From contig LJUW01000004.1 in the NCBI GenBank assembly GCA_001304315.1, positions 1,018-65,017 of the forward strand: a DNA stretch of 64,000 bases. Reading direction: 5' to 3'. The notes below the pieces were generated by a model. That model saw only the letters and a list, made by a program, of their open reading frames with translations, was not told where the DNA came from and did no database searches. Origin of the DNA: a candidate division Zixibacteria bacterium SM23_73_2 (GTDB lineage Bacteria > Zixibacteria > MSB-5A5 > SM23-73-2). Below, one piece after another: positions 5,135 to 24,840 of this stretch; positions within the stretch are counted from its first letter, which is position 1, and each line of letters opens with the position of its first letter. The position numbers and the translations under genes were made by a program.

Positions 5135-5137
5135 AAT

Positions 5138-6021: not shown

Positions 6022-6045
6022 TAACAAAAACAATCCAAAAAGAAA

Positions 6046-9038: not shown

Positions 9039-11902
9039 AAACCAAAGCGAAGAAAAACGCCTCAAGTTTCTGGTCAAGAATTGAGGCTGCAGAAGAGTTA
9101 ATCCGAAAGAAAGCTTACAAGCAAGCTTTGGCGGATATTAAAGAGTTGAAGCAGGAACAGAAGCATTCCCCCTTCAGTGAAGAGGGTGCTGCTATATCCT
9201 GTCTTTTAGCTGATTCACTGTCCAATCAGGGGAGATACAAGGAAGCTCTTCCCGAAGCCAAAAACGCCTATCACTTTTTCAAAAACACCTTAGAACACAA
9301 AAGGATAGCTGAAATCCTGTGGATTTTAGGGAACATCTATCTTGCCACCGGTTTGCTTAAAGAGGCAGAGAATCAGATAAGGGATGCAATAACCACTTAC
9401 AGAAGATCAGACGATATCAAAGGTATTATAGCTGGATACAACAAGATAGCCCAGATATACTTCATTCAATCAGATTTTACCAAATCAGAGGAATATCTTA
9501 AGGAATCGATTAGGTTATGCGATGAGATAGATTATTATCAAAAAAAAGGTGGGCTTTTACGTAATTTAGCCACTGTCAATACCTTACAGGGAAAAATCAA
9601 TCAGGCTGAAAAGAATTTATTAAAAAGCATTCTGATTAACCAGAAACTGAAAGACGAAATATTTTTAGCCCAGGGTTATCTCTCCCTGGGATACGTCAAA
9701 TTCTTAAAAAGAGACTTTACTCAATCCTATAATCTCTATCAAAAGGCAAAAAAACTGATTGAGGAAAACAACCTCACCAGGGATTTAGCCATCTTTTGTG
9801 AATACTCGGCGGAGCTGTCTTTAGCACAGGGAGATTATAAAAAAGCAGAAGAGCTCTGCAATCAGGCGCTTTCCTTAATAGAAAAAAACGCTCCTGAAGG
9901 AGACATCGCTTCCCAGACCAACAGGATTTTAGCTGAGCTTAAAACAGCCCAGAACCAGCTCGATTCCGCTTTAGAATTCTGCGAAAGGTCTCTGGAGGTA
10001 TCAATATCCTTAAACGAGAGAATAGAACAGGGAACCGTATACCGTATCCTGGGAGAGATCTGGTCGAAAAAGGGGCAGCAAAAAAAAGCCTTAGACTATT
10101 TCTCCAAAAGCATCGACCTGTTTCAAAAGTTGGGCACCGATTACGAGTTAGCCAAAACACTTCTTAAAGCTGGAAAAGCAGGTTGTTTTGATTACAAAAT
10201 ATCTCTTGGTTTTCTAGAAAAAAGCCAGAAGCTTTTCACCGAGATAAAAATACCTTATCTCTCTGCAGAGGTCCAGCTTTCTAAGGCTCATCTGTTCCTG
10301 GAAGAAAACGATATGGACCAGGCTGTAGATACTCTGGATTCAGCCCAGGCTCTTTTCGCCCAAATCTCAGACGAGGATAAGCTTAAGGAAGTTGAAACCG
10401 CAAGAGAGAAAATCGAGAATCTGCTTTCAGAGAAATCACTGTCAGTGGAGAACGAATACCGGTTGTTCAGAAGATATCTCTCAGAGGGTGAGTACCGGGG
10501 GCTCAAGGGAGGGAGCCTAAAGGAGATTCTGAACATACTGGGTAAAAGGGTGGAAGCGGATAGAGGATTTATACTATTGAAGAATGGCGAAGAGGAATTG
10601 AAAGCTGTTTCCTGTTTTAATATTCAACCTGAGGATGCAAGCCGATTATTCTCAGAACTGCCCGATTCTCAAAAGCTAACTCAACAGCCGGTAATCAGCA
10701 CCAGCGCCTTTAGAGTGAATGGAGAACAGATCAAGGGTTTCCTTTTGATCCCCCTGAACTCCGGGGAAAAAGTAGAAGGGTATCTGTATCTCGATAGAAA
10801 TGGGCGGATATTACCAAAAACCTTCTTTACCCAGACCCAGTTTAACTTCGCTGTTGCATTTGGTGATGTGATCGGATTGAAGTTAATCGAGCTCGAGAAA
10901 AAAAGGCTGGAACAGGATAATCTTAAGTTAAGGCAACAGCTTGAATTAACCCACGCCTTTCCAACAGTTATAACTCAAAGTCCCAGGATGCTGAATATCC
11001 TGTGGAAGCTCTTGCAGGTCAAAGACTCCAGTCTTCCGATATTACTTGAAGGCGAAACCGGAACCGGCAAAGACTTGATTGCAAAGGCCATCCATTATTC
11101 ATGCAACAAAAAAGAAGGTAAATTCGTTGCCATAAACTGCGCAGCTTTACCCGAGCCTTTATTTGAGTCAGAGCTTTTCGGACACAAAAAGGGCTCTTAT
11201 ACCGGGGCAGCCTTTGACAAAAAAGGTCTTCTGGAGGAAGCTGACGGAGGAACTTTATATCTGGACGAGCTGGCGGACATAACCCCATCCTCCCAGATAA
11301 AGCTTCTTCGGGTTTTGGAAAACAAGGAATTCACCCGTCTGGGTGAAACCACTCTCAGAAAAGTGGACATCCGGATAATTACCTCCACCAACAGAATAAT
11401 GAAGGAGGAGGTGGAAAAAGGTAACTTCCGAAAGGATCTATTCTATCGTCTTAACGCCGTTCATATCAGGATTCCAACCCTTAAAGAAAGAAGGGAAGAC
11501 ATTCCTATCCTGGTGGATCATTTCATCCGAAGCTACTCGGATGATCCTTCACTTTTCTCCAATCTGGTACCTTTGATTCTGGAGATCTTCACCAACTACG
11601 ACTGGCCCGGAAACATAAGAGAGCTGGAGAACGAAGTCAAAAGGATTTTAACCTTCAACAAAGGCAAAGAACAAGCTCAGCTGGAGGGACTCTCCGACAA
11701 GTTCACCATGCCGGAGGAGCTGATAAAAGAAAAGCTCTCATTGTACGACCGCATAGCTTTGCTGGAGAAGCAATACATCATAAAAGCTTTAAACGAAAAC
11801 AACTGGGTAAAGAAAAAAGCTGCTCGCACGCTCTCCATCCCCGAATCCTCCTTGAGGTTCAAGATGAAGCAGTACAAAATATCTACTCCCAAGAAAAAAT
11901 AG
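9035..11902 (+). CDS. Sigma-54-dependent transcriptional activator with N-terminal TPR sensor region (TPR - GAF-like - AAA+ - Fis HTH)
   Basis: - About 450-aa TPR-like N-terminus.
- AAA+ 'GETGTGKDLIAKAIH', and 'GSYTGA', a variant of the GAFTGA sigma-54 contact loop.
- 'PGNIRELEN' and a C-terminal HTH_8 'KKAARTLSIPESSLRFKMKQY'. Confidence 0.85.
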   Translation: MKTKAKKNASSFWSRIEAAEELIRKKAYKQALADIKELKQEQKHSPFSEEGAAISCLLADSLSNQGRYKEALPEAKNAYHFFKNTLEHKRIAEILWILGNIYLATGLLKEAENQIRDAITTYRRSDDIKGIIAGYNKIAQIYFIQSDFTKSEEYLKESIRLCDEIDYYQKKGGLLRNLATVNTLQGKINQAEKNLLKSILINQKLKDEIFLAQGYLSLGYVKFLKRDFTQSYNLYQKAKKLIEENNLTRDLAIFCEYSAELSLAQGDYKKAEELCNQALSLIEKNAPEGDIASQTNRILAELKTAQNQLDSALEFCERSLEVSISLNERIEQGTVYRILGEIWSKKGQQKKALDYFSKSIDLFQKLGTDYELAKTLLKAGKAGCFDYKISLGFLEKSQKLFTEIKIPYLSAEVQLSKAHLFLEENDMDQAVDTLDSAQALFAQISDEDKLKEVETAREKIENLLSEKSLSVENEYRLFRRYLSEGEYRGLKGGSLKEILNILGKRVEADRGFILLKNGEEELKAVSCFNIQPEDASRLFSELPDSQKLTQQPVISTSAFRVNGEQIKGFLLIPLNSGEKVEGYLYLDRNGRILPKTFFTQTQFNFAVAFGDVIGLKLIELEKKRLEQDNLKLRQQLELTHAFPTVITQSPRMLNILWKLLQVKDSSLPILLEGETGTGKDLIAKAIHYSCNKKEGKFVAINCAALPEPLFESELFGHKKGSYTGAAFDKKGLLEEADGGTLYLDELADITPSSQIKLLRVLENKEFTRLGETTLRKVDIRIITSTNRIMKEEVEKGNFRKDLFYRLNAVHIRIPTLKERREDIPILVDHFIRSYSDDPSLFSNLVPLILEIFTNYDWPGNIRELENEVKRILTFNKGKEQAQLEGLSDKFTMPEELIKEKLSLYDRIALLEKQYIIKALNENNWVKKKAARTLSIPESSLRFKMKQYKISTPKKK

Positions 11903-11923
11903 AAAATAATATTTGATTTTAAA

Positions 11924-11947
11924 AGCCATCTCCGGATGGTTTTTTTG
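11924..11947 (+). terminator. Weak rho-independent terminator after the sigma-54 activator
   Basis: Short stem 'agccatc/gatggtt' with a 4-nt loop, followed by TTTTTTG. Confidence 0.35.
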
Positions 11948-12122
11948 TATTTGACCTGTCAAGCTTCAGCTTGATCAATAATTTTTATTTACCAAGAATT
12001 TCCCCCATCAAACTCAAGGATTTACATCAACAACATCTTTTCCTGTCGCATTCAAAAACTATTGACAATTGATTCAACTTAGATTAATTATTAAGAAAAC
12101 TTACACAAAAAGGAAGGTTTGA

Positions 12123-12901: not shown

Positions 12902-13918
12902 CTATTTTTTAACCCTTTGCCCCGAACCTTTATCAAACCTATGAATCTTTCTCTCTTCAAAAACCAACCAAACCTCCTCCCCCTCTCTAATTTTCTCCTC
13001 AGGCTTAAGCCTTACTGATACTAAAATGTCCGAAACCTCAACGTAAAGATAATTATCCGAACCCAGAATCTCTATGACGCTCGATTTTCCTTTGATCGAA
13101 TCTGGAACCTCTTTTAAAGATAACTTAAAATCCTCAGGTCTTATTCCAACTGTTACATTTTTATCTTTAACAAAGGGAACAATCTCTCCTGGCAAAAAAT
13201 TCATCGTGGGAGAACCGATAAAACCTGCGGTGAAGATATCCTCCGGTTTCTCATAAACATCCTTGGGTGTGCCCACCTGCAGTATCTTTCCATCCTTAAT
13301 CACCGCCAACCTGTCAGATAAGGTCATCGCCTCTGCCTGGTCATGGGTAACGTATATGATTGTTATATTGACTTTTTTATGGAGCCTTTTCAGCTCGGTT
13401 CTCATCCTCAGTCTCAGCTTCGCATCTAAATTTGACAAAGGTTCATCCAGAAGCAAAACATCCGGCTCCAAAACCAAAGCCCTGCCCAGAGCGACTCTCT
13501 GACGTTGACCACCTGAAAGCTCTCGGGGCAGCCGTCTCCCCAATCCCTCCAACCTTAAAAGATCCAGAGCCCACCCGATCTTTTCCCTTTTCTTTTTTCC
13601 CTCCATCCTTCTTATCTTCAAACCGAATCCAATATTAGCCTCGACTGACATATGAGGGAACAAAGCATAACTCTGAAAAACCATGGAGATGTTTCTTTTT
13701 TGAGGAGGAATATCATTAACCAATCTTTTATCAATGAAGATTTTTCCAGTGCTGATCTTTTCCAGACCAGCAATTAACCTCAAGGTGGTCGATTTGCCAC
13801 AGCCTGATGGACCAACCAGGGTCAAAAACTCCCCATCCCCAACTTTCAGATTAATATCATCTACTGCCTTGACCTCTCCGAAAAGCTTACTCAAACTCTC
13901 CAATCTTACTTCAGCCAC
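12902..13918 (-). CDS. ABC transporter ATP-binding protein, MalK/UgpC-type with C-terminal TOBE domain
   Basis: Walker A 'GPSGCGKST', signature 'LSGGQRQRVALGRAL', Walker B 'LLLDEPLSNLD'. About 110-aa C-terminal regulatory (TOBE/MalK_C) domain. Confidence 0.85.
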   Translation of the reverse strand: MAEVRLESLSKLFGEVKAVDDINLKVGDGEFLTLVGPSGCGKSTTLRLIAGLEKISTGKIFIDKRLVNDIPPQKRNISMVFQSYALFPHMSVEANIGFGLKIRRMEGKKKREKIGWALDLLRLEGLGRRLPRELSGGQRQRVALGRALVLEPDVLLLDEPLSNLDAKLRLRMRTELKRLHKKVNITIIYVTHDQAEAMTLSDRLAVIKDGKILQVGTPKDVYEKPEDIFTAGFIGSPTMNFLPGEIVPFVKDKNVTVGIRPEDFKLSLKEVPDSIKGKSSVIEILGSDNYLYVEVSDILVSVRLKPEEKIREGEEVWLVFEERKIHRFDKGSGQRVKK

Positions 13919-14009
13919 GATCTTCTCTGATTTTTAAGTTCCTATTAGTTCCCCTGAATTCTTGATGCATACTCACCAGCACATAATCCGAGGCTATTGC
14001 TCAACTCCC

Positions 14010-14145
14010 CTGGCCGGACAGGCATCGTGTCATTCTGACCCCCGCTAACAGCGGGAGGAAGAATCTCATTTGCGAAGCATTCTTTGAATTTCCTACGATA
14101 TAAAAGACCCTTCACTTCGTTCAGGGTGACACTTGTAGACTTTGA
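14010..14145. repeat. MITE-like GC-rich palindromic element, copy A (between permease and ATPase genes of the ABC operon)
   Basis: About 85% identical, in inverted orientation, to 29104-29262. Contains 'gtcattctgac', the hairpin 'cccgctaacagcggg' and 'gaagaatctc...gcattctt'. The spurious ORF 13945-14157 is its translation. Confidence 0.65.
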
Positions 14146-14200
14146 TAATAATCTCATTCTCTACTTTAACTTCCGCTAAAAGAATTTTCGTTTGTCAAAC

Positions 14201-15025
14201 TCATTTCACCGCTCCCGCGGTCAAACCGGTTCTCATATATCTCTGAACCGCAAAGGTAAATATAATAACCGGAATGCATATGAAAAGAGAGATCGCAGCT
14301 ATGAAATTCTTCTGGGGTGACCAGGTTAAAATTCTTAAAAGGTAAACTGGCAGAGTGCTTTCCGTTCCCTGAAACATAAGAAAATAAGCGAACACGAACT
14401 CATTCCAGGACAGAAGAAAAGTATAGATAGCAGCTGCTCCCAGCCCCGGTAAAGCCAAAGGTACAAGAATCCTCAAAAATGAATATGCCCGGGAAGCCCC
14501 CAATACCTGTGACTGTTCCTCCAGATCCCTGGGGATCGACTCGAAAACCCCTTTAGCGATGTAAATGGTATAAGGCAAGGATAAAAGAGTATGAGCTAAG
14601 GCTACCGAGATCACCGGGGGCAGAAGGGATAAAGGCTTTTTAAAAAACTGCTCCGCCACCGGGATCACCGCAGATATGTCCGGGAACAACCGTACAGACA
14701 GAAGAAAGAAAAGCAAAATTGCCAAACCCGGGATTTTAAACCGGGCTAAGGCGAAAGCTGATGGAACACCCAAGAAAAGACAAAAAGCCACAGTTAAAAA
14801 ACCAACCTCAAGACTGACAATTCCGGATTGCAAGAAATCATTTCTAACCGATAAGGATTCGAACATCTTGAAATTTGGTTCAAAAGGCCAGAAAGGTTCA
14901 GGATACCTCCCTCCGGTGACCACGCTGTCCCGATCCGATACTGAGTACTTAAAAAGGATGAAGATGGGGAAGATTATGAAAAAAATGGTAATTGCGATAA
15001 GAATTATTTTTAATAAGTTTCCCAT
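14201..15025 (-). CDS. Carbohydrate ABC transporter permease (MalG/UgpE-like)
   Basis: 6 TM helices and the EAA loop region 'AKGVFESIPRDLEEQSQVLGAS'. Confidence 0.8.
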   Translation of the reverse strand: MGNLLKIILIAITIFFIIFPIFILFKYSVSDRDSVVTGGRYPEPFWPFEPNFKMFESLSVRNDFLQSGIVSLEVGFLTVAFCLFLGVPSAFALARFKIPGLAILLFFLLSVRLFPDISAVIPVAEQFFKKPLSLLPPVISVALAHTLLSLPYTIYIAKGVFESIPRDLEEQSQVLGASRAYSFLRILVPLALPGLGAAAIYTFLLSWNEFVFAYFLMFQGTESTLPVYLLRILTWSPQKNFIAAISLFICIPVIIFTFAVQRYMRTGLTAGAVK

Positions 15026-15040
15026 ATCTCATTCATCAGT

Positions 15041-15925
15041 TTAAACTTTTATTAATTGGGATCTTACAGTTTTAGTCAAAAAGGTAAAAAGAAAAGTTGT
15101 CGTCCCGATAAAGATCACCAGCCACAGGGCGCAGGCACAGGCAAGCTGGGGATTCTGCTCCACGTGATATAACCTTTCGATTAATACTCCCAAAAGAGGA
15201 TAGGCTGGAGCAATGATAAAAGGGAAAATAAATTCCTTCCAGTTCTCAATTGATCTCAAGATCAAAACAGTGGAGATAGCTGGAGTGAGAAGCGGGAGGG
15301 TGATGTATTTAAACCTCTGCCAAAAACTTGCACCCATAATCTCGGAAGCCTCATACGCTTCCCTATCTATGGTCTGAAGACCCGCCAGGATAATCAGCAT
15401 GGCAATGGGCATATCCCTCCAAACCTTCCCCAGCATGGCTAAACCGATTGAGAAAAACTCGGACCCGCTGAAATTCAAAGGAAAAGATAGGATTTTGGGA
15501 AAGAAAACGTATTTGCCTAAAAGAAGATCGTTGATGTGACCGAAAGGATAGGAGAACAAAAGATTTATAATTACCGCGGTAACCAAAGCCGGTATTGCAA
15601 TGGGAACCAAAAACAGGCTTCTGATCAAACCCACCCCTTTGAAACTCTCGTAAACCAGCAATGCCAGGATTATCCCCACCACAAGCTGAAGTGGAGTACC
15701 CACCAGCATAAACCAGAAGGTCCTCCACAAAGCTTCCCTGAACTCAATCTCTGCGAAAACGGACAATATAGGCAGACCCTCCCCCAAGGAGAATTTGAAA
15801 AGATAAAACAATACAATCACAAGGAAAGCGAAAAGGTAAAGAAAGGAGGGAATGGTGATTCCGATGATAAAAAGGTTATCTTTTATCTGCTCCCATATGG
15901 AGTAACTTTTTGTTTTCCTCAGCAT
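15041..15925 (-). CDS. Carbohydrate ABC transporter permease (MalF/UgpA-like)
   Basis: 6 TM helices and the EAA-like loop 'DREAYEASEIMGASFWQRFKYITLP'. Confidence 0.8.
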   Translation of the reverse strand: MLRKTKSYSIWEQIKDNLFIIGITIPSFLYLFAFLVIVLFYLFKFSLGEGLPILSVFAEIEFREALWRTFWFMLVGTPLQLVVGIILALLVYESFKGVGLIRSLFLVPIAIPALVTAVIINLLFSYPFGHINDLLLGKYVFFPKILSFPLNFSGSEFFSIGLAMLGKVWRDMPIAMLIILAGLQTIDREAYEASEIMGASFWQRFKYITLPLLTPAISTVLILRSIENWKEFIFPFIIAPAYPLLGVLIERLYHVEQNPQLACACALWLVIFIGTTTFLFTFLTKTVRSQLIKV

Positions 15926-17372
15926 ACTTTTTCAAAACCGATTTTATCTCACCCTTACCAAAAAGCTTTTTCTCCACCGCTATCTCATACCAGGCATCCA
16001 GGTAGTTCTTGCCCAGGGCTGGCAGGGAAACGAGCGAGGGCGATGGTTTAGTTCCAAGCTCAAATTGCCTTTGCGAGATCTCGAAGATGTCTTTTTTCCA
16101 GTCCTCGGAGAATATCTCAGAGATCTCCTCTACGACATCGATCCTTACCGGAAACATACCGAAGCGGGAACATTCCTCGATCTGGTTGGTTTTGCTGGTA
16201 ATAAACCGAGCCAATTTGTAAGAGAGATCAGGTGAAGGAGACGTCTTTGGAATCCCCCACCACCAGCCATAAAGATTTGAGTTATGATCTCCCTTTCTTT
16301 TGGGATTACCTTTGTTATCCAATTCTAAAGAGACGCCTGCGGGTACAATGGAAATACCCAAATCCTCAGGATCTTTGAGGTATCCGATCATGGTCGGATC
16401 AGAACCACCGTGAATAAAGAAAAGATCAATCTGGTGCATGAAAGCCAAAAAAACCTGCCCCTCGGAAATAGCCTTCCATATCCCTCCCCCGGACCAGCTC
16501 TGCTCCCACATACCCGGATTGTAAAGATTATTATTCACAAAAAAACCTTCCCACAAGAACATATCCACCACCGGATCGGTATCCATCCTGAGTATATCGT
16601 TTTTATCTCCTCCCATCTCGAACACCCTGGTGAAAAGCTCGTTGGTGGTCCCCGCATATTTTTTGCCCCGATGAGCCATCCGGGGAAGTAAAAGTCCCTG
16701 ATAAGAATTATTTGCCCAAAAGTAGGATAATACCAAAAGGTCATAAAAATCCCACCGATTGGGGTCTTTTTCCAGGATATAATCCCGGGGCAGTCCATAT
16801 CCGTTCACTTTTTTCAACATCCCGCCGATTACCTCTCTGTCCTTTTCCCAGTTATTCAAAACATCCTCCACTTTGGATTTCAGATAGAACAAAAGATAGG
16901 TCTCCAGCTTTCTCGGAATATAGAAAACCTCCCCATCGATGGTCCCGATATCCAAAGCCAGGGGAAGATATTCCGAAAGATCGATCTTTAGCTGAGCGCT
17001 GTCAACGATCTCTTTTAATGAAGTCAAATATCCTTCCCTGGCCAAAGGATAGACCATCTCGTAGGCGGTTTTGACCAAGCCTATTCTTTTCTCCCCGGAT
17101 TTAAACTCAAGCTCTATCATCCTTTTCACGTCCTCCACCTTGTCAAAGGTAACCACGTTGAGCTTTGTGTTTTCCTGTTTCTCAAACTCCTTCATCTTTT
17201 CCCTGAACCATAGATCCTGGATATCCATCATCCTTATCAAGACCGTCATCTCGGTTTTTGGCTTTTTTTCACAGTAAAGTTGTGTGATGATTATCACCAA
17301 AATCAGAAGACAAAAACCGATTTTAAAAAAAATTTTAATTTTAATCTTTTTCGATCCTTTCCAATATTCCAA
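15876..17372 (-). CDS. Extracellular solute-binding protein (family 1, sugar-binding) lipoprotein
   Basis: Signal peptide/lipobox 'TQLYC'. About 470-aa periplasmic binding fold. First gene of the SBP-permease-permease-ATPase operon. Confidence 0.7.
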   Translation of the reverse strand: MEYWKGSKKIKIKIFFKIGFCLLILVIIITQLYCEKKPKTEMTVLIRMMDIQDLWFREKMKEFEKQENTKLNVVTFDKVEDVKRMIELEFKSGEKRIGLVKTAYEMVYPLAREGYLTSLKEIVDSAQLKIDLSEYLPLALDIGTIDGEVFYIPRKLETYLLFYLKSKVEDVLNNWEKDREVIGGMLKKVNGYGLPRDYILEKDPNRWDFYDLLVLSYFWANNSYQGLLLPRMAHRGKKYAGTTNELFTRVFEMGGDKNDILRMDTDPVVDMFLWEGFFVNNNLYNPGMWEQSWSGGGIWKAISEGQVFLAFMHQIDLFFIHGGSDPTMIGYLKDPEDLGISIVPAGVSLELDNKGNPKRKGDHNSNLYGWWWGIPKTSPSPDLSYKLARFITSKTNQIEECSRFGMFPVRIDVVEEISEIFSEDWKKDIFEISQRQFELGTKPSPSLVSLPALGKNYLDAWYEIAVEKKLFGKGEIKSVLKKYAEENKKLLHMGADKR

Positions 17373-18180
17373 ACACCGCTTGATTCCAGCCCGCAGGACC
17401 TATCCCCTCAGTTAAAAAAGGCTCTTTTATTCTTTTTAATACCTCTTTTTTATAATTCCCATTATGAAGTTTAACTAAAACAGGATAATCAACCTCCAAA
17501 AGCATAGACAAATCGTTCATACTGTCCCCTAAACCTAAAGATACAAGCTCAGATTCCCATTCTTTTTCATACATCTTTTTAAGCATCCTTAAAGCTTCTC
17601 CCTTATTACTTCCCCCGGTCAAATGAAAAAGCTTCCCCCCTTTCACCATATTCAATCCCAGCTCGGTGAATTCATTTTGAATTATTTTCAAAGTATCCTG
17701 CTCCGGAGAGGTTATAAAATAAAAGGGTTCATCATACTCCCTTTTCTTTGCCAAAGAAGCCTCATTTTGGCTCAAACCGAAATCCTTTTGTATCTCCTCC
17801 GGGCTCATATCCCCGAATCCCTTAACTTTCAGTCCAAACTCCCCTGTTACCTCAAAAAGCTTTTCTCTTAAGACCTGATAAGTAGTGCCAAATTCCTTCA
17901 CCAGATACTTATCTTTCTCTTTCAGAGAAAAATCAACGGATTTAAAATAATCTTTTGGTAAAAATATAGCTCCCCCGTTCTCCGGGATAAAGGGATGATG
18001 ATTTTTCAATTTCTTCTGATAGACCTCGATCTCAGCCCTGGTCTTGCTTGTACACATTATCAGAGGAATACCCCTTTTTCTTAATTCTGCCAAAGCGGGT
18101 ATTGCTGGTTTAAAAGAATAGGTATGATAGTCGAGAAGGGTCCCATCCAGATCGGTGAATACCAATATCTTCTTTTTCAT
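17341..18180 (-). CDS. HAD-IIB phosphatase, mannosyl-/glucosyl-3-phosphoglycerate phosphatase (MPGP/YedP) family
   Basis: 'VFTDLDGTLLD' motif I, 'LIMCTSKTRAEI', 'GDSMND' motif IV. Size and spacing match the MPGP family. Confidence 0.65.
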   Translation of the reverse strand: MKKKILVFTDLDGTLLDYHTYSFKPAIPALAELRKRGIPLIMCTSKTRAEIEVYQKKLKNHHPFIPENGGAIFLPKDYFKSVDFSLKEKDKYLVKEFGTTYQVLREKLFEVTGEFGLKVKGFGDMSPEEIQKDFGLSQNEASLAKKREYDEPFYFITSPEQDTLKIIQNEFTELGLNMVKGGKLFHLTGGSNKGEALRMLKKMYEKEWESELVSLGLGDSMNDLSMLLEVDYPVLVKLHNGNYKKEVLKRIKEPFLTEGIGPAGWNQAVFGILERIEKD

Positions 18181-18185
18181 GATTT

Positions 18186-18893
18186 TCAGATATGAGAGAT
18201 ATCATCTGGTTTTTTCTTGGGTTCGCCTGTTGATTTGACCTTCTTTTCCAAAAAATCCTTAGCCATATCCTTCCCGCCCAGACCAAAAGCAATGGCCAAA
18301 GCTAAAACCACACCCCCTAAAAGTATGGAAAAAGTAGCTATCACCACCCCCTTAGCAATACCCAACTGTTCTATCCCCATTGCCAGAAACAGTATCAAAA
18401 TCAGAACGTGAACCGCGACCGAGATCGGCTTGGCTGATTTCACCTGGGCGTTGACCAGAGCAATCAATATAGCCCTTCCCACGAATCCAGCTAAAAGATA
18501 CCCGAAGATCAAAACCAGAACCGCTATCAAAAAGCGGGGAAGGTACACCAAAAACGATGCAGCCATCTGATCTACTGCCCCAACATTCAAAGTGCTCAAG
18601 CTCACCAGTAGAAATAAAAAAATCACTACCCAGTAAAGGATCAAGCCGATGATCTCCGAGGGAGTCCTTCTGACATTGGCTCTGGCCAAAGCAGTGGATA
18701 AACCGATACGGTAGCACAAAGTATCAAATCTCACCCCCTTTAGGATCTCACGAATCGCCACTTTCAGAATCCATGCCAGAATGAATCCCAAAACCACAAT
18801 GATCAAAAACACCAGGACTTTTGGACCTAAGACCTTCAGTTCTTCCCAAAACTGAACAAAAGGATTAGACGATAATATCAAATTCATAATCAC
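18186..18893 (-). CDS. Membrane protein with conserved-TM-helix repeats
   Basis: 6-7 TM helices with internally repeated hydrophobic segments. No other signature. Confidence 0.35.
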   Translation of the reverse strand: MIMNLILSSNPFVQFWEELKVLGPKVLVFLIIVVLGFILAWILKVAIREILKGVRFDTLCYRIGLSTALARANVRRTPSEIIGLILYWVVIFLFLLVSLSTLNVGAVDQMAASFLVYLPRFLIAVLVLIFGYLLAGFVGRAILIALVNAQVKSAKPISVAVHVLILILFLAMGIEQLGIAKGVVIATFSILLGGVVLALAIAFGLGGKDMAKDFLEKKVKSTGEPKKKPDDISHI

Positions 18894-18899
18894 TCCTTT

Positions 18900-20168
18900 T
18901 TATTTCCATCTGGATAAAAGATATCCTTTTTGTTTTTCAAATTCCTGACACAGATTTTCTATTTTCTCCTCCACCTCAGGTGGTGAGCTTTCCATGGTTT
19001 CATTGACAAAAGAAGCGGTTCTCCCCAAATAAAGAGGAGTCAAAGACCTCAGGATATGTTCACGGGTCATTATATTTTTATGAAAAGCTAAGGAGAAATC
19101 ATAGACTATCCTCACCCAGAGCTCTGCGGGTAATCTGAATTCCAAAACGTTATAAGAGGATATCCGATTCAGCTCAGATAGAACGTCTCCAGACAAGAAT
19201 CTATCCCAGACCGAAACTAAATCGGATACTCCGTACTTGAAACTCTCCACCATACCCTCCAGATTAACTCTCACCGGATCAGTTGCCACCTCGAATTTGA
19301 ACCCGAATTCCGGAACCGGAGTTGAATCTGTGACTCCAGACCAACTGTCATAATGGGTCTCCATAAGGTTAAAAACCGAGCCCACCACCTGGGAAAGCAT
19401 TGAGGAAAGGTCTGCTCCCGGATCTTTGGGATTATGAATTTTGGCGCCTAAAAAGGATTGACATACCTTAAAACCACCAGCAACCGAGGTGGTGGTCATC
19501 CAGATATCTATCCCGTATCTTGCCACATCGGTTTGATAGACCTTTTTATTCTTTAGGAAATGCGATAACATCTCTCCAGAAAAACCGAATTCACCCCCGA
19601 TCGGCTGTCTTATCCTTTTGCCGTACAAAGCCCTGGTCAGAGGATATACGATTGAATTAGTAATGGTACCATCGTATTTGTGCCTCTGATATAAAGGTGC
19701 CACAAAATCGAAACCGTGAAAAAGGATCGGCTCGATCAAAGACTCCATCCACTCCGGGGTAATGCTCCTCAGATCGGAATCTACCACTGCACAGGCTTTT
19801 GCCTCGAGAAGATGAGCTATCTCAAAGATGGTTCTGAAAGCACTTCCCTTTCCCGGAATACCGTGATAAGGGGTTACGATCTTGTTAATCAGATGGATCG
19901 GATGTTCGATCAAGATGGTATCGAAATCCTCCACCGCTGTCTCTTTAACCAGGTTGGGAGTCCCATCCTTAGATCCGCCATCTGAATTAATAAGCACGAA
20001 GTTATATTTGGAAAAGTACTTAACCAATCCTGCTGATACTGCTCTGACCACATGGGGTATGGTTCTGGCATTGTTGTAGCTGGGTATCCCCACTACTATA
20101 TCGGCTTTTTTGTATTCCTTTACTTTCTCTCTTACCTCTTTGTTTAAGATGCTTCTTGGCATAAACAC
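18900..20168 (-). CDS. GT81-like glycosyltransferase (glucosyl-3-phosphoglycerate synthase GpgS family) with ~100-aa C-terminal extension
   Basis: 'VVGIPSYNNARTIPHVV', 'LINSDGGSKDGT', 'GIPGKGSAF' and 'AVVDSDLRSITPEW' line up with the GpgS NTP-sugar-binding core (DxD = DSD). Confidence 0.55.
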   Translation of the reverse strand: MFMPRSILNKEVREKVKEYKKADIVVGIPSYNNARTIPHVVRAVSAGLVKYFSKYNFVLINSDGGSKDGTPNLVKETAVEDFDTILIEHPIHLINKIVTPYHGIPGKGSAFRTIFEIAHLLEAKACAVVDSDLRSITPEWMESLIEPILFHGFDFVAPLYQRHKYDGTITNSIVYPLTRALYGKRIRQPIGGEFGFSGEMLSHFLKNKKVYQTDVARYGIDIWMTTTSVAGGFKVCQSFLGAKIHNPKDPGADLSSMLSQVVGSVFNLMETHYDSWSGVTDSTPVPEFGFKFEVATDPVRVNLEGMVESFKYGVSDLVSVWDRFLSGDVLSELNRISSYNVLEFRLPAELWVRIVYDFSLAFHKNIMTREHILRSLTPLYLGRTASFVNETMESSPPEVEEKIENLCQEFEKQKGYLLSRWK

Positions 20169-21493
20169 TAACCCGCTAAAATCAAATGGATATCCATAAC
20201 GTTGGTATTGGTTGGACCGGTCTTTATCAGATCACCTAACTTTTCAAAAAAATGGTAGGAATCGTTTTGCTCCAGATACTCTTCCGGATTCAAGTTCAAC
20301 TTTTTTGCCCGGGAAACCGTGAATCCATCGCAGACTGCACCAGCAGCATCGGTCGGTCCATCGGTTCCATCGGTATTCAGGCTGGCGATCACAACATCCT
20401 TTAATCCCTCGATCTGGATAGCGGAAACCAGTGCAAACTCCTGGTTCCTTCCCCCCAATCCATCTCCCTTGACTTTCACCGTGGTTTCACCACCGGAGAT
20501 TACACATGCAGGGGTGGGAACAATTTTTCCCTCAACTCTTATTTTTCTGGCTAACTCAGCATGTTTAAAAGCAGCCTCTCTGGTATCACCTGAGATGGTC
20601 GATGACAAAATAAGGATATTAAAATCAAGTTCTTTTGCCTTTCTCTCCGCCTCCTTTAAAGCTAAAACATTCGATCCCACAATTATGTTTTTCACTTTTT
20701 CAAAAATCGAATCACCGGACTTTAACGTTTCGAAATCTTTTTTGTTTTGATTCTCTTCTAAAAACTTCTTTATAGTTTCCGGGATCTCATTTATCAATTC
20801 ATACTTCTCAAGAATCTCAAGACAATCTCCGAAAGTTGTAGGGTCAGGTGCAGTAGGTCCAGAGGCAATAGAATCCAATCTATCCCCGATAACATCTGAC
20901 AGTATTAAGGATACTATTTGAGCCGGGTAAGCTAACTTGGCTAATTTTCCTCCTTTAACCCGGGAGATGTGTTTTCTTATGGTGTTTATCTCATCTATGT
21001 TAGCTCCGCACTCCAGAAGAAGCGAAGTTATCTTTTTCTTATCCTCCAGATCGATTCCCTCCAAGGGAGAAGTTAAAAGAGCTGATCCTCCTCCTGAAAG
21101 AAGACAGATAACCAAATCGTTTTCAGATGCCTGGGAGAGGATTTCGATTATTCTTTCCGTTCCCAAAATCCCGCTTTGGTCAGGGATGGGGTGACTTCCG
21201 AAAAACAGTTCTATCTTTTTGAGGGAAGCTTCATAACCTGTTTTTGAAACAATTGCTCCGGAATCGATCAACTCCCCTAAAACCTCTTCGGTAGCCTGAG
21301 CCATCAGAGCTGAAGCTTTGCCCGCCCCCACTACAAAGATTCTTCTAATTTCCTCTAATTTTCTTCTGAAATCTCCAGTTTCAATATAACCGTTTTTAAG
21401 TTTCAGAAATCTTTTTACGCAAAGCTCTGGATTTGCCCCTTTCAACGACTCCTTTAATATTAAGTTAGCTTTTTCCCTCAATAAAGCTTCCAT
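20168..21493 (-). CDS. Glycerate 2-kinase (MOFRL family, GckA/TtuD-like)
   Basis: MOFRL N- and C-terminal domains. 'GGETTVKVKGDGLGGRNQEFAL' signature. Confidence 0.8.
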   Translation of the reverse strand: MEALLREKANLILKESLKGANPELCVKRFLKLKNGYIETGDFRRKLEEIRRIFVVGAGKASALMAQATEEVLGELIDSGAIVSKTGYEASLKKIELFFGSHPIPDQSGILGTERIIEILSQASENDLVICLLSGGGSALLTSPLEGIDLEDKKKITSLLLECGANIDEINTIRKHISRVKGGKLAKLAYPAQIVSLILSDVIGDRLDSIASGPTAPDPTTFGDCLEILEKYELINEIPETIKKFLEENQNKKDFETLKSGDSIFEKVKNIIVGSNVLALKEAERKAKELDFNILILSSTISGDTREAAFKHAELARKIRVEGKIVPTPACVISGGETTVKVKGDGLGGRNQEFALVSAIQIEGLKDVVIASLNTDGTDGPTDAAGAVCDGFTVSRAKKLNLNPEEYLEQNDSYHFFEKLGDLIKTGPTNTNVMDIHLILAG

Positions 21494-21513
21494 GGTTTTA
21501 TTTTGGGGGAAGT

Positions 21514-22722
21514 TTACTTATTATCTTCTGCTACTGTTTCCTTTAGTCTTTCCAAAAAATCTGGAATGGCAGAAGTAACTCTGTTCCAGTTGGGGATCTC
21601 AGGGATTCCCAAGGGATCATCCAAAAATTCTTTTCCAGCGATCTTAATTCCTTGCAGAAAAGTCTCCACTGCTGTCACCTCAGCATGTCGATCGAAAAAC
21701 AAATTATTTATGAAAGCATCATCCTCATATCTTTTTATGGTATCCTGGGCAGCCCTCAGATAGGTTCCGGTCAAAGTTCTGAGAAGACCGGCTGAAATTA
21801 TAATACCCTCCTGGGAGAGAGTTCTGAAAAGAGATTTGGTTATATCGATACACATTTTCAAAAGCCCTTTGGTTCGGTCGTCTGGAGAAAGCTCCTGATG
21901 TTTATGTTCGTAGGTATCAACCAGGTCAACCTGGCAGATCCTTTTGGGAACGCAGTTCCGATAGACCTCTGCCAAGACCCCTACCTCCAATCCCCAGTCG
22001 CTCGGGATCCTGATTGCTCTTGCCAGATCAACGTCCTGGCTGAATTCCCCGGCTAAAGGATAGCGAAAACTATCCAGATATACCAGAAACGGATGATAAC
22101 CTACGATTTTCTGCAAAGCGCGGACAAGTGGGGTGAAATATAGTCGGGTGACCCTTCCGAACATCCTGTCAGTTACCCTGGAGTAATAACCTTTGCAAAA
22201 CTCGTAGCCCAGATTAGGATTAGCCAGAGGGTAGCAGAGGCGAGCTAAAAGCTCTCGGCTGTAGTTTACTATGTCACAATCGTGTAGAACAATGACCTCA
22301 CTTTTCTCGTTAGCTATCACATAGCCAAAGGCAATCCACACTGATCTCCCCTTTCCATCCTCGCCCAAGGAAAGCTCGTTTTCATCCAGAAGCTTGTAAA
22401 GCTCACCTATCCTGGGACCGGAGCTCCAGACGATATTTATATCCAGATCAAGGTTTGACAAAATCTTTTTGGCCCTTTTGAATTCCATCGCATTGGTTTT
22501 GTTCATCACCATCACTATCTCGTTCAAATAGTTAACCTCTTTCAACTGCTTGAGAATGCTGGGCAAAGCCTTCCTCTCGAACTCCGCATAAACAGCGGGG
22601 AGGATTAAAGCCAGGGGTCTGTGATCTCCATGTTCCTTTATCTCAGCTTCCAGGGATTCAAGATCCCGGTTCCCTAATCTATGTAAAGTTGAAATTGCTC
22701 CTTGCTGAAAGAAATCACCCAT
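21514..22722 (-). CDS. GT55-like mannosyl-3-phosphoglycerate synthase family glycosyltransferase
   Basis: 'DGKGRSVWIAFGYV' and 'VLHDCDIVNY' blocks resemble the archaeal/bacterial MpgS 'GKGEGM...VDADNY' core. Confidence 0.55.
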   Translation of the reverse strand: MGDFFQQGAISTLHRLGNRDLESLEAEIKEHGDHRPLALILPAVYAEFERKALPSILKQLKEVNYLNEIVMVMNKTNAMEFKRAKKILSNLDLDINIVWSSGPRIGELYKLLDENELSLGEDGKGRSVWIAFGYVIANEKSEVIVLHDCDIVNYSRELLARLCYPLANPNLGYEFCKGYYSRVTDRMFGRVTRLYFTPLVRALQKIVGYHPFLVYLDSFRYPLAGEFSQDVDLARAIRIPSDWGLEVGVLAEVYRNCVPKRICQVDLVDTYEHKHQELSPDDRTKGLLKMCIDITKSLFRTLSQEGIIISAGLLRTLTGTYLRAAQDTIKRYEDDAFINNLFFDRHAEVTAVETFLQGIKIAGKEFLDDPLGIPEIPNWNRVTSAIPDFLERLKETVAEDNK

Positions 22723-22971
22723 CTCTCCCTCCTTTCCTATTTTAGTTTAGTATTCTAAACTTAAAAGTCAAGTAAAAACTAAATTTTCAATGGGTTTTCA
22801 CAAATGTGTGGAAAATCAGTATAAAAACAGTAAATAAAATAATAAAAAACCTCTTTTGTTTTAAACCTGCCAGATTGATACTGTCATTGCTATAGATTAT
22901 AAGATATCTCAGATCTAAAGCAATTTATCCAAACAATGCTTGTGAAAGGTAAAACAATTTTTTATCTTTAA

Positions 22972-23688
22972 ATGTGGTATCCGATGGGTAAAAATAAAAC
23001 CATAGAATCTCTGGTAAATAGCTTGGGCAAAAAGTTCTCAACTTCCCTTGACATCGATCTTTCGAAAAAAAAATCCCAGGAGATATTCAAATGGTTTTTA
23101 GCCTCGGTTCTTTTCGGGGCAAGGATATCCGAAACGATAGCGTGCAAAACCTTCAATGAATTTAAAAAAGAGGATGTCTTGACCCCCTCTGCTGTTTTGG
23201 AAACCGGCTGGGACGGGCTGGTAAGGATTCTGGATAGCGGAGGATATGTCAGGTACGATTTTAAAACCGCCACTAAACTATTGGAGATAACCAAAGATTT
23301 AATCGATGAATATAAGGGGGATTTACAAAAACTTCATTCATCTGCAAAGGATCAAAAGGATCTGGAACGGAGAATAAAGAATCTGGGAAAAGGTATCGGA
23401 GACGTTACTTGTAATATATTCTTACGAGAACTTAGGGGAATCTGGGGAAAAGCCGATCCTCTGCCCGGTGCTATGGTGATCGAGGGAGCAGGAAATTTAG
23501 GACTTTTGACTTCAGGTCAAACTAAAAGGAAAATGCTTCTGCAGCTGAAAAAATTGTGGCGGGAAAACAGGGTGAAAGAAAAGGATTTCTCTGATTTCGA
23601 GGCAGCACTATTAAGATTGGCAAAGGATTTCTGCAGGAAGAAAAAGTGCCATATCTGTGTGGTAAAAAATTACTGTATGAAAAAATAA
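22972..23688 (+). CDS. HhH-GPD superfamily base-excision repair protein-like, with C-terminal Cys cluster
   Basis: Helix-hairpin-helix-like 'LGKGIGDVTCNIFLRELRG' and C-terminal 'C-x4-C-x2-C-x5-C' resembling the EndoIII/MutY FCL cluster. Weak assignment. Confidence 0.35.
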   Translation: MWYPMGKNKTIESLVNSLGKKFSTSLDIDLSKKKSQEIFKWFLASVLFGARISETIACKTFNEFKKEDVLTPSAVLETGWDGLVRILDSGGYVRYDFKTATKLLEITKDLIDEYKGDLQKLHSSAKDQKDLERRIKNLGKGIGDVTCNIFLRELRGIWGKADPLPGAMVIEGAGNLGLLTSGQTKRKMLLQLKKLWRENRVKEKDFSDFEAALLRLAKDFCRKKKCHICVVKNYCMKK

Positions 23689-23748
23689 AAACCAAAACCG
23701 GTAGCCACAGACAAAAGCCTGCGAAATAAAAAATTTCAAGAAACTCGA

Positions 23749-24519
23749 ATGGAACCCTATCCTCGATACATAACACCGGGCTTTAAGCCATTCGATCCTC
23801 TGGAACTGGCAAGAAAAACGGAGGAGATCACTTGCCAGGGGGATTTAAAAAAATACTCTAAATTCTTATGCGCAGGCGTTTATCAGGGAATCTCAACCGG
23901 ATACACTGTAGGATGCTGCCTCAGGTGCATCTTCTGCTGGGTAAACTGGTCAAGGGATTTCCCGGAAAAGGGTATGGATTTTTACTCTCCCCAGCAAGTT
24001 TTTAAAAAGCTGGTATTCTATGCCAAAAAGAAAAATGTTCCCAGATTGCGAATCTCAGGCGGCGAGCCAACCTTAGGTAAAGAGCATCTTTTAAAGGTCC
24101 TGGATCTGGTAAATACCACCGACTACCTTTTCATTCTGGAGACCAACGGAATCCTTTTTGGATATGACAGGGATTATGTCTCTAAATTAAAAAAACATAA
24201 AAACGTGTATATTCGTCTCTGCCTGAAAGCCGGAACACCGGAGGGATTTGAAAAAAGGACCGGTGCAAAAGGTGATTTTTTCGAGCTTCCCTATCTGGGA
24301 ATAAAAAACCTGATGGAAGAAAATCTTAAGTTTCACGTGGCATGCATGAACGACCCGGCCTTGATGCCGGATTCGGAAAACCAGATTATGAAGAAAAAGC
24401 TCAAAAAGCTCGGATATTTCGATTATTTAGAGGAGGAGTTCTGCGATCCATATTATACCTCAGTCCAAAGATTAGAAAAAGCAGGTTATCACATATTTAA
24501 TCAGAAAAACAGAGATTAA
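23749..24519 (+). CDS. Radical SAM domain protein
   Basis: 'CCLRCIFC' gives CxxxCxxC, plus a 'SGGEPTL' glycine-rich SAM motif. Confidence 0.7.
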   Translation: MEPYPRYITPGFKPFDPLELARKTEEITCQGDLKKYSKFLCAGVYQGISTGYTVGCCLRCIFCWVNWSRDFPEKGMDFYSPQQVFKKLVFYAKKKNVPRLRISGGEPTLGKEHLLKVLDLVNTTDYLFILETNGILFGYDRDYVSKLKKHKNVYIRLCLKAGTPEGFEKRTGAKGDFFELPYLGIKNLMEENLKFHVACMNDPALMPDSENQIMKKKLKKLGYFDYLEEEFCDPYYTSVQRLEKAGYHIFNQKNRD

Positions 24520-24603
24520 AGTCAAAAAGGAATGCAAAAACTTGTTTTTGCGAAAAGATCACTAAATAATCAGAATATTGTAGGCTAAAAAAGAGATGAA
24601 AAA

Positions 24604-24812: not shown

Positions 24813-24840
24813 CACAAGTCAGATTTGAAAGGAGAAAAAG

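Follow-up and report, generated by a model that had tools for sequence, protein, structure and literature searches.

A candidate glucosylglycerate cluster beside a sugar ABC importer in a Zixibacteria genome from estuarine sediment

The Zixibacteria bacterium SM23_73_2 is represented by a MAG from estuarine sediment (sibling contig names carry White Oak River and SMTZ tags). In the 64,000-nucleotide stretch of its DNA that was analysed here (the window), two glycosyltransferases, a phosphatase and a glycerate kinase are encoded beside a sugar importer. Which glycosylated glycerate would such a block produce, by which route, and does the importer belong to it? The first-pass annotation proposed a glycosyl-glycerate compatible-solute cluster following the phosphorylating route to mannosylglucosylglycerate (MGG) known from Petrotoga. 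[quoted passage not shown] The solute is probably a different one, glucosylglycerate (GG), with two routes of synthesis. The block is most likely a GG cluster with an importer, an already known kind of cluster, rather than the rarer MGG pathway.

Organization of the locus

In the ORF listing of the window, the minus strand between 22722 and 12902 carries nine consecutive ORFs, all in the single direction and with the coordinates first described, and plus-strand genes occupy both flanks. The last base of the glycerate kinase stop codon is the first base of the GTG start of the 422-aa transferase ORF (20168). The stop of the latter is followed after 7 nt by the listed start of the ORF for a PF05552 membrane protein (18893). 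On an identical contig (L001) the start called for this gene corresponds to 18887, which lies 13 nt past the stop of the 422-aa gene and is likely the true start. The ORFs of the HAD phosphatase and the substrate-binding protein (SBP) overlap by 32 nt, given a TTG start for the SBP, and the sole long gap in the block, 282 nt, separates permease 2 from the ATPase gene. The upstream intergenic region (22723..22971, minus strand) separates the block from a divergent gene on the plus strand. It has a GGAGG ribosome-binding site immediately 5' of the ATG and one sigma-70-like site (TTGACT-16-TAAACT, 22771-22744), which is only suggestive because promoter-like matches across the region are no commoner than in shuffled sequence.

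Two glycosyltransferases of different types

The first gene (21514..22722, minus strand) encodes a 402-aa GT-A transferase resembling GpgS of the archaeal/Persephonella type. It had been taken for a GT55 mannosyl-3-phosphoglycerate synthase (MpgS). The protein has no Pfam match at E ≤ 0.01, and hence none to any Pfam GT55 MpgS model. It aligns end to end with NCBIfam NF040724, GpgS_Meth (residues 5-401 on model positions 3-399 of 402; 377 bits, E 1e-112), at a score well below the 700-bit equivalog cutoff of that model. Its PDB sequence matches are GT81 MpgS/GpgS enzymes, the best being the MpgS of Rubrobacter, an enzyme that also has GpgS activity. K124, D148xD150, E226 and H273 align with K114, D134xD136, E232 and H258 of Mycobacterium tuberculosis GpgS, and G189-R-V-T192 aligns with V186/T187 of the same enzyme (PMC2581804 backs the residue mapping). 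KPL04408.1 has the same sequence (100% identity), and many relatives (65-84% identity) bear the JGI name "glucosyl-3-phosphoglycerate synthase". Judged by its sequence, it is a GpgS-type protein, with the catalytic and glycerate-binding residues of GpgS present, and not a GT55 MpgS.

The third gene (18900..20168, minus strand) encodes a 422-aa protein composed of a GT-A domain and a C-terminal helical domain, which was initially described as a GT81 GpgS with a C-terminal extension. Its full length corresponds instead to the MGS fold (GT78-type). The AF2 model (pLDDT 83) finds Rhodothermus marinus mannosylglycerate synthase (2y4j/2bo4) as its best Foldseek match (E 5e-14, TM 0.75, about 412 columns), at a sequence identity of only about 17%, and in the structure search GT81 GpgS covers the N-terminal domain only (E 1e-8). 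Pfam assigns Glycos_transf_2 and MGS_GT (27.6 bits, cutoff 27). The invariant residues K107, D130xD132, R162 and D166 align with K76, D100xD102, R131 and D135 of MGS, and T170, D221 and H245, likewise invariant, with T139, D192 and H217. Two relatives, at 62-63% identity, carry the JGI name "glucosylglycerate synthase". The modelled fold and these residues make the protein most likely a candidate Ggs, a single-step glycosyl-glycerate synthase. The transferases found are of the GpgS and Ggs types, and a pair of MpgS-type and GpgS-type enzymes is rejected.

Kinase, phosphatase and membrane protein

The remaining genes of the synthesis part belong to the families first named for them. The 441-aa class II (MOFRL) glycerate 2-kinase (20168..21493, minus strand) contains DUF4147 (E 1.5e-83) and MOFRL (E 3e-42). 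It matches Thermotoga maritima 2b8n (E 1e-99) and PH0495 (E 3e-96) in the PDB, and NCBIfam glycerate 2-kinase models give about 240 bits, under their cutoffs. No GG hydrolase or phosphorylase, which could account for the kinase, is present. The 279-aa HAD-IIB phosphatase (17341..18180, minus strand), a candidate glucosyl-3-phosphoglycerate phosphatase (GpgP), scores 236 bits against the MPGP family model TIGR01486 (cutoff 165), and equivalog MPGP models stay under their cutoffs. Its PDB match is Thermus thermophilus MpgP (3ztw, E 4e-35), and the motifs DxD (D10, D12), T44-S45 and GDSMND are present.

Between the 422-aa transferase and the phosphatase lies a stand-alone membrane protein of about 233 aa (18186..18893, minus strand) with the PF05552 signature, "mechanosensitive channel conserved TM helix" (E 4.5e-11). 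Two stretches match PF05552, in agreement with the TM repeats described initially, and NF033912 "msc" gives 74 bits. Hydropathy indicates about 5 TM helices, followed by a conserved C-terminal tail ending in S-H-[LI]. The AF2 model is all-helical and has no significant match in the structure search, where local likeness to the MscS TM region appears with probability 0.6-0.85 and E > 1. All of the 120 closest relatives listed have PF05552 only; most span 230-240 aa, with a few truncated, and where a name is given it is usually "hypothetical".

Conserved neighbours in related loci

Synteny was scored in 84 related loci seeded with Ggs, with record titles that point to roughly a dozen groups at phylum level. 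Direct adjacency of Ggs and PF05552 genes could be tested in 75 of them, and other neighbours were counted within 10 kb of Ggs. In 74 of the 75 the PF05552 gene follows Ggs directly on the same strand. The literature search found no published description of this pairing, and the PF05552 gene may be an obligate genomic partner of Ggs. GpgS occurs in 38/84 loci, a homologue of the HAD phosphatase in 37/84 and the two together in 31, while a glycerate kinase homologue occurs in 15/84. Where at least 5 kb is available on both sides, the phosphatase accompanies GpgS in 21 of 25 GpgS-containing loci. TreY and TreZ, both exceeding their NCBIfam cutoffs, recur beside the Ggs-PF05552 pair, as do a TreT-like GT4, a fused OtsA/B, GlgC (a supplier of ADP-glucose), MscS channels, Na/Ca exchangers and P-type ATPases. 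As a set, the neighbours make up an osmolyte and glucose-polymer context, in line with the compatible-solute idea.

The ABC importer

The last four genes encode, as first read, an SBP, a pair of permeases and an ATPase of MalK/UgpC type. The SBP (15876..17372, minus strand) is a divergent family-1 (CUT1) protein (SBP_bac_8 E 2.6e-14, SBP_bac_1 E 1.6e-7). It is probably a lipoprotein, to judge from a hydrophobic N-terminal signal up to Cys34. The best PDB match is weak (maltose/maltodextrin-binding protein, E 0.0035), and none of the NCBIfam models for SBPs is matched above its cutoff. Permease 1 (15041..15925, BPD_transp_1 E 4e-19) is MalF/UgpA-like and permease 2 (14201..15025, BPD_transp_1 E 4e-11) MalG/UgpE-like, both on the minus strand. 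A 282-nt spacer containing short palindromes (13919..14200, minus strand), variable in length and sequence among relatives, precedes the ATPase gene (12902..13918, minus strand; ABC_tran E 4e-34, TOBE_2 E 4e-8), the product of which has a TOBE-type C-terminal domain and scores 417 bits against NF008653 UgpC (cutoff 432).

An importer of this kind had been thought to fit uptake of the solute. The suggestion survives for close relatives, since SBP orthologues of at least 75% identity (L009, L089-L092) all keep the link to the GG genes, but not for the 14 more distant homologues, which stand in unrelated contexts. These 14, out of 18 metagenome loci that were seeded with the SBP and have readable flanks, retain the order SBP-permease-permease-ATPase at 61-68% SBP identity, with no GG gene within 9 kb and with pyrE-like, acpS-like, cupin and NUDIX genes as neighbours. 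Among the 84 loci seeded with Ggs, a single one has this SBP. The link is lineage-specific, and it could quite possibly be incidental, a housekeeping sugar transporter operon having come to lie beside GG genes in one Zixibacteria sub-lineage. Such an accident would, however, have to be squared with the tight same-strand junction at which the phosphatase and SBP ORFs overlap, with the conservation among the closest orthologues and with four Nitrospirales loci in which a different, non-orthologous CUT1 system begins 0-190 nt past the PF05552 gene, recruited independently to the same position. A functional tie between importer and GG genes is plausible but weak.

Proposed pathway and competing readings

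The order of the genes, their families, the catalytic residues that are retained and the synteny counts are observations, and a scheme can be set beside them. By homology, the 402-aa GpgS-type transferase would join NDP-glucose and 3-phosphoglycerate to glucosyl-3-phosphoglycerate, and the HAD phosphatase would release GG by dephosphorylation. A second route is suggested by the fold, the retained residues and the annotation of relatives at the source; in it the 422-aa enzyme would form GG from NDP-glucose, probably ADP-glucose, and free D-glycerate. The MOFRL kinase may convert free D-glycerate to 2-phosphoglycerate and so tie the glycerate pool to glycolysis, perhaps to salvage it once GG is turned over or to control the substrate of the second route. 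The PF05552 protein might most readily be pictured as a valve in the membrane that releases the solute in response to tension, or else as a protein that serves the synthase as sensor or anchor. The CUT1 system would probably recapture or scavenge GG or a related glucoside. We infer that the sugar is glucose and that the cluster serves under osmotic or nitrogen-limitation stress. Of the osmoadaptation or thermoadaptation island suggested earlier, the osmotic half fits the osmolyte-type neighbours in relatives; thermoadaptation is unlikely, because the source is an estuarine sediment.

Other products have to be weighed against GG. MGG formed as in Petrotoga, where GpgS acts first, a second transferase adds mannose and an MPGP-type phosphatase completes the pathway, is very improbable. 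The block does encode an enzyme of GpgS type and a phosphatase of the MPGP family, and MGG producers carry GpgS too, Petrotoga mobilis and Rhodopirellula baltica using GpgS, MggA and MggB (PMC3736172). The Petrotoga route, with its final phosphatase step, is nevertheless defined by MggA, a GT4 alpha-mannosyltransferase; MggA and MggS are both GT4 (GT-B) enzymes, and the MggB of R. baltica is an unrelated, highly specific phosphatase (PMC3736172). Neither transferase of the block is GT4, the second being a GT-A enzyme of MGS/Ggs type. The window has 55 ORFs of 100 aa or more, and a scan of the 39 largest, confined to this stretch of the genome, turned up no Glycos_transf_1/GT4 gene, neither MggA nor MggS. 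On these two grounds the block is not assigned to the Petrotoga route.

A mannosylglycerate (MG) cluster, with the 422-aa protein as a true MGS and the 402-aa protein and phosphatase as an MpgS/MpgP-like pair, is unlikely. It is kept in view because a mannosyl transferase is the closest enzyme of solved structure to the 422-aa protein and because enzymes of MGS type may be promiscuous. The Pfam family of that protein, the Rubrobacter MpgS at the head of the matches of the 402-aa protein (again an enzyme with GpgS activity) and the MPGP names of the phosphatase's top models point the same way, and HAD MpgPs and GpgPs are functionally interchangeable (PMC3240985). Against mannose speak the low identity to MGS, the GpgS model as sole full-length family match of the 402-aa protein and the JGI names for relatives of both transferases, which refer to glucose. 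The recurrent GlgC, TreY/Z, TreT and OtsAB supply or use glucose, and no mannose-1-phosphate guanylyltransferase is found among the conserved neighbours of the related loci. Nor does it seem at all probable that GG is a primer or building block of a larger glycoconjugate, with the membrane protein and transporter devoted to the envelope or a polysaccharide. GG primes mycobacterial methylglucose lipopolysaccharide (MGLP; PMC3240985, PMC2674218) and the PF05552 partner is an uncharacterised membrane protein, but cluster and relatives are devoid of elongating glycosyltransferases, methyltransferases and acyltransferases and are surrounded by osmolyte and ion-homeostasis genes. GG as a compatible solute stays the preferred reading.

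Comparison with known systems

The closest parallel is Persephonella marina, a marine thermophile, the glucosylglycerate operon of which is reportedly made up of gpgS, gpgP and ggs (Costa et al. 2007, Fernandes et al. 2007), the latter work reportedly giving the GpgS-type plus Ggs-type content. As in that reported gene content, the Zixibacteria block has genes for a synthase of GpgS type, a GpgP of HAD type and a single-step synthase of Ggs type together on one strand, which would give two routes to one solute in a single organism. Unlike the P. marina operon, the Zixibacteria cluster also holds a glycerate 2-kinase gene of MOFRL type and the four genes of an ABC importer, and its host is a mesophilic sediment bacterium.

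With R. marinus MGS (GT78; 2bo4, 2y4j) the 422-aa protein shares the full-length two-domain fold and the constellation of DxD, Lys, Asp, His and Arg/Thr acceptor-binding residues; its donor would probably be glucose, whereas that of MGS is mannose. The R. marinus MGS gene is not known to be paired with a PF05552 gene. Mechanosensitive channels of the MscS family are said in a review to be encoded in osmolyte gene clusters, for instance beside ectoine genes. Similarly, a protein with the MscS-type TM-helix signature lies here inside a compatible-solute synthesis cluster, a parallel that makes a role as solute release valve plausible. In contrast to MscS channels, the PF05552 protein comprises the TM repeats only, without the pore and beta domain (PF00924) or the cytoplasmic vestibule.

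GgtABCD of Synechocystis is an ABC importer for glucosylglycerol, sucrose and trehalose. Like it, the Zixibacteria importer has an SBP of CUT1 type, a pair of permeases and a MalK-like ATPase, and is associated with a probable heteroside osmolyte. Unlike in GgtABCD, the Zixibacteria SBP is very divergent and its link to synthesis genes is restricted to one lineage. Re-uptake of leaked solute, as by GgtABCD (named in PMC2874817), is the role proposed for the Zixibacteria importer.

Cluster organization and host

Nine ORFs occupy 12902-22722 (-) in a single direction, as the first-pass annotation had described, and plus-strand genes flank both ends. Read along the minus strand, the order is a 402-aa transferase (21514-22722), a 441-aa kinase (20168-21493), a 422-aa transferase (18900-20168), a membrane protein of the PF05552 family (18186-18893), a 279-aa HAD phosphatase (17341-18180) and a four-gene ABC importer (12902-17372). 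The base at 20168 is both the first of the GTG start of the 422-aa ORF and the last of the kinase stop codon. The PF05552 ORF begins 7 nt past the stop codon of the 422-aa gene with the start as listed (18893), or 13 nt past it with the start used on the identical contig L001 (18887), and the phosphatase and solute-binding protein (SBP) ORFs overlap by 32 nt with the TTG start of the SBP. The sole sizeable gap, of 282 nt, lies between the second permease and the ATPase gene. Promoter and terminator scans gave nothing exceeding shuffled expectation. The cluster is also present in independent assemblies (ENA, Logan). GenBank entries KPL04403-KPL04408, from candidate division Zixibacteria bacterium SM23_73_2, match its proteins exactly, and the G+C content stays even at about 42%.

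WORSMTZ appears as a tag in the contig name of a sibling genome, and SMTZ1 is the name of a related metagenome contig; these tags denote the White Oak River sulfate-methane transition zone. The host is thus apparently a mesophilic bacterium of sediment, which makes thermoadaptation, one of the roles suggested for the island, unlikely.

The two glycosyltransferases

The 402-aa protein had been taken for a GT55 mannosyl-3-phosphoglycerate synthase (MpgS) of the Pyrococcus/Thermus type (Osmo_MPGsynth, TIGR02460). It matches no Pfam family at E ≤ 0.01, and at the same threshold only two NCBIfam models, both of them GpgS (glucosyl-3-phosphoglycerate synthase) and neither MpgS; the GT55 assignment is rejected. 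Model NF040724 (GpgS_Meth, EC 2.4.1.266) spans the protein end to end (residues 5-401 vs model positions 3-399 of 402, E 1e-112), with a score of 377 bits that lies under the curated equivalog cutoff of 700. Its PDB sequence matches are GT81 MpgS/GpgS enzymes, and K124, D148xD150, E226, H273 and G189-R-V-T192 align with K114, D134xD136, E232, H258 and V186/T187 of Mycobacterium tuberculosis GpgS. In the latter enzyme these residues make up the Lys-Asp-Glu network, the DxD motif, a His that binds the metal, and a Val/Thr loop binding the carboxylate of glycerate (PMC2581804). On this sequence evidence, membership in the archaeal/Persephonella-type GpgS family holds, and we infer that the protein is isofunctional with GpgS, converting NDP-glucose and 3-PGA into glucosyl-3-phosphoglycerate.

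The 422-aa protein was the one previously read as a GT81 GpgS with a C-terminal extension. Its AF2 model (pLDDT 83) has as top Foldseek matches 2y4j and 2bo4, the mannosylglycerate synthase (MGS) of Rhodothermus (E 5e-14, about 412 aligned columns), with a TM-score of 0.73-0.76 normalised to the target. The match is full-length and includes the C-terminal helical domain, whereas the GT81 GpgS fold appears as a second-tier match to the N-terminal domain only (E 1e-8); the reading as a GpgS plus extension is rejected. At the sequence level the protein scores 27.6 against Pfam MGS_GT (cutoff 27.0) and 53 bits against PRK13915, the GT81 actinobacterial GpgS model (cutoff 262), and has no PDB sequence match at E ≤ 0.01. 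In a profile of 25 homologues, K107, D130xD132, R162, D166, T170, D221 and H245 are invariant and align, in order, with MGS K76, D100xD102, R131, D135, T139, D192 and H217. The predicted architecture, a GT-A domain followed by a C-terminal helical domain, is that of single-step synthases acting on an NDP-sugar and D-glycerate. Two relatives (62-63% identity) are named 'glucosylglycerate synthase' (Ggs, EC 2.4.1.268) by JGI.

Phosphatase and glycerate kinase

The 279-aa protein scores 236 bits against TIGR01486 (cutoff 164.75), matches PDB 3ztw, the MpgP of Thermus, at E 4e-35, and retains intact HAD motifs (DxD, T/S-K, GDxxND). It is therefore a HAD-IIB phosphatase of the MPGP family, as proposed at first reading, placed at subfamily level: it falls under the cutoff of every equivalog model (e.g., NF001218, 240 vs 362). 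Characterised MpgP/GpgP members act on both GPG and MPG (PMC3240985).

The 441-aa protein combines DUF4147 and MOFRL and matches PDB 2b8n at E 1e-99, in keeping with the glycerate 2-kinase originally named (the MOFRL type, class II), and scores below the equivalog cutoffs of the NCBIfam glycerate 2-kinase models. Only a minority of lineages have the kinase gene inside the cluster. In the simplest reading, the enzyme would manage the free D-glycerate pool used by Ggs, or salvage glycerate after turnover of glucosylglycerate (GG). Neither the cluster genes nor the further window ORFs that were scanned include a GG hydrolase or GG phosphorylase.

Distribution and neighbourhoods of Ggs genes

The families of both transferases are very large and highly conserved: the homologue search with each gave at least 8000 hits, and at least 596 relatives were confirmed in a genome scan, the best 80 of which are all MAGs. 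Analysis of 84 Ggs-seeded loci (L005-L088), from about a dozen groups at phylum level, drew on records titled Zixibacteria, 'Ignavibacteria', Nitrospirota/Thermodesulfovibrionia, Acidobacteriota, Aminicenantes, Syntrophorhabdaceae, Syntrophaceae, Desulfobacterota-type, Nitrospinota, Calditrichaceae and Gallionellales. The PF05552 gene lies directly downstream of Ggs on the same strand in 74 of the 75 loci with at least 900 bp downstream, at a median gap of 69 nt between tblastn matches. GpgS homologues occur within 10 kb of Ggs in 38/84 loci and HAD phosphatases in 37/84, and 31 of the 84 contain both; glycerate kinase is found within the same distance in 15/84. The SBP of the window type accompanies Ggs in a single locus of the 84 (L009, from the closest Zixibacteria genome).

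Also found repeatedly near Ggs are trehalose genes, a GH57-like gene, GlgC, MscS channels, Na/Ca exchangers and P-type ATPases; the TreY and TreZ of relatives both exceed their NCBIfam cutoffs. Judged by its gene content, the Ggs neighbourhood is an osmolyte and ion-homeostasis setting. In two Nitrospirota loci (L007 and L015, about 4864-11974), an MscS channel, DUF5752, a TreT-like GT4 and a fused OtsA/OtsB precede the Ggs-PF05552 pair; this GT4 may be either a trehalose synthase or a mannosyltransferase resembling MggS.

The predicted solute

[quoted passage not shown] Neither transferase of the cluster is a GT4 enzyme, and Pfam found no Glycos_transf_1/GT4 domain in the nine cluster proteins or in 30 other window ORFs, the 39 scanned being the largest of 55 ORFs of at least 100 aa (the remaining 16 are all shorter than 220 aa). 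The MGG reading thus lacks its defining enzyme. The more general proposal of a glycosyl-glycerate compatible-solute cluster stands, with MGG removed as its product.

Mannosylglycerate (MG) is a possible product in place of GG. Against it stands the 402-aa protein, whose sole full-length family model is GpgS. The JGI names of relatives likewise refer to glucose. The relatives' neighbours are also linked to glucose (GlgC, TreY, TreZ, a TreT-like GT4 and OtsAB), and no mannose-activating gene is among them. Each of these points favours glucose over mannose, and the neighbourhoods in particular favour glucose as the donor of the 422-aa protein. The GG operon of Persephonella marina reportedly comprises genes for GpgS, a HAD GpgP and Ggs (Fernandes et al. 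2007); the same-strand set of GpgS-type, HAD GpgP-type and Ggs-type genes found here corresponds to this content. We regard the cluster as a likely dual-route GG synthesis cluster, in which GG is favoured over both MG and MGG. Read in this way, it is of an already known kind, here in an uncultivated phylum.

No relevant report of glucosylglycerate in Zixibacteria or Nitrospira was found in the literature. Because very similar Ggs/GpgS genes occur in very large numbers among uncultivated phyla of sediment and groundwater, GG may be far more widespread as a stress solute of anoxic sediments than the few producers in culture would suggest. For this MAG, genes labelled 'glycosyl transferase' or 'hypothetical' in GenBank become readable as a complete GG toolkit, and naming GG in place of MGG stops the spread of a rare-pathway annotation.

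The PF05552 membrane protein

The gene between the 422-aa transferase and the phosphatase encodes a membrane protein of about 233 aa with two PF05552 stretches and about five TM helices, so the earlier description as a TM-repeat protein was apt. The AF2 model is helical, and the conserved C-terminal tail ends in S-H-[LI]. The protein consists of PF05552 TM repeats only: the pore helix and beta domain of MscS-family channels (PF00924) and their cytoplasmic vestibule are absent. Foldseek gave no significant PDB match to the model, similarity to the TM region of MscS being local (about 90-110 residues, E > 1). The best 120 relatives listed likewise contain PF05552 only; most measure 230-240 aa and a few are cut short, and where a name is given it is mostly 'hypothetical'.

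The full scan yielded 775 PF05552-family representatives at E ≤ 1e-30, and no MscS domain was seen in those checked. Some forms are tandemly duplicated, with 4-5 repeats in about 500-600 aa (P0400, P0425 and similar). The search for natural fusions to Ggs or MscS domains returned only these duplications and one chimera, P0467, in which Ggs residues 1-219 are followed by a PF05552 protein, with an internal deletion; it is probably an assembly artefact.

No description of the PF05552 protein or of its pairing with Ggs was found in the literature. Its near-obligate linkage is to Ggs and not to GpgS or GpgP, and this gene arrangement argues for the two as functional partners. A part as valve, sensor or anchor is speculation. 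One tentative proposal, to which we give rather low probability, is that Ggs and the stand-alone PF05552 protein form a conserved module in which the membrane protein gates GG release or makes the activity of the synthase respond to membrane tension or ionic strength. If true, this would be a minimal osmolyte valve or osmosensor of a new kind, formed of MscS-like TM helices minus the MscS channel body. The conserved pairing may be the one new feature of the cluster, and it provides a concrete lead on the regulation or release of such solutes.

The ABC importer

The last four genes (12902-17372) encode a CUT1 sugar importer, and all four parts expected from the first-pass annotation were found: a family-1 SBP, two permeases of the MalF/MalG type and a MalK/UgpC-type ATPase with a C-terminal regulatory domain. 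Orthologues of the SBP with at least 75% identity (L009, L089-L092) keep the linkage to GG genes. In 14 loci with homologues at 61-68% identity (L093-L106), the ABC operon is intact, GG genes are absent within 9 kb, and the adjoining genes are pyrE-like, acpS-like (holo-ACP-synthase-like), cupin and NUDIX genes.

Four Nitrospirales loci (L055, 11065-15250; L074; L078; L081) have a different CUT1 system that starts 0-190 nt after the PF05552 gene and comprises an SBP, permeases and a MalK-like ATPase. Its SBP shares only 25% local identity with that of the window; the system is non-orthologous and represents an independent recruitment behind the same cluster. A different CUT1 system at the same position speaks against pure coincidence, and a functional link between importer and GG genes is plausible, with the chances roughly even. 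Should the proposed Ggs-PF05552 module be real, CUT1 importers repeatedly recruited behind it would complete a circuit of synthesis, release and recapture.

Within the transporter operon, the 282-nt spacer (13919-14200) contains short palindromes, such as the 25-nt GTCACCCTGAACGAAGTGAAGGGTC at 14106-14130, which, when checked as a possible sign of a repeated mobile element, proved to be single-copy in the window. In the nearest genome the spacer measures 224 nt and is of unrelated sequence, and other relatives have about 39 nt; since both length and sequence differ, it is a variable insert.

Surrounding genes

Of the two sigma-54-dependent activators encoded in the window, at 9035-11902 (+) and 46944-48746 (-), one carries TPR repeats and the other a GAF domain; the gene at 9035-11902 is convergent with the ABC operon and faces its end. 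No obvious -24/-12 promoter was seen upstream of the cluster. Divergent from the cluster, at 22972-25599 (+), lie genes for a 238-aa protein that has no Pfam match, a radical SAM protein and a Metallophos_3 phosphoesterase, and this trio is arranged alike on the independent contigs L001 and L002. Farther away, 51497-61541 (+) holds a type IV pilus/type II secretion-like block (prepilin N-methylation motif protein, secretin, AAA ATPase, TPR protein, T2SSE and T2SSF). The gene at 31528-33816 (+) encodes a C25 (gingipain-like) peptidase bearing a dockerin domain, and that at 26717-28957 (-) an M1 peptidase bearing a He_PIG Ig-like domain; a tRNA gene is located at 26449-26530 (-).
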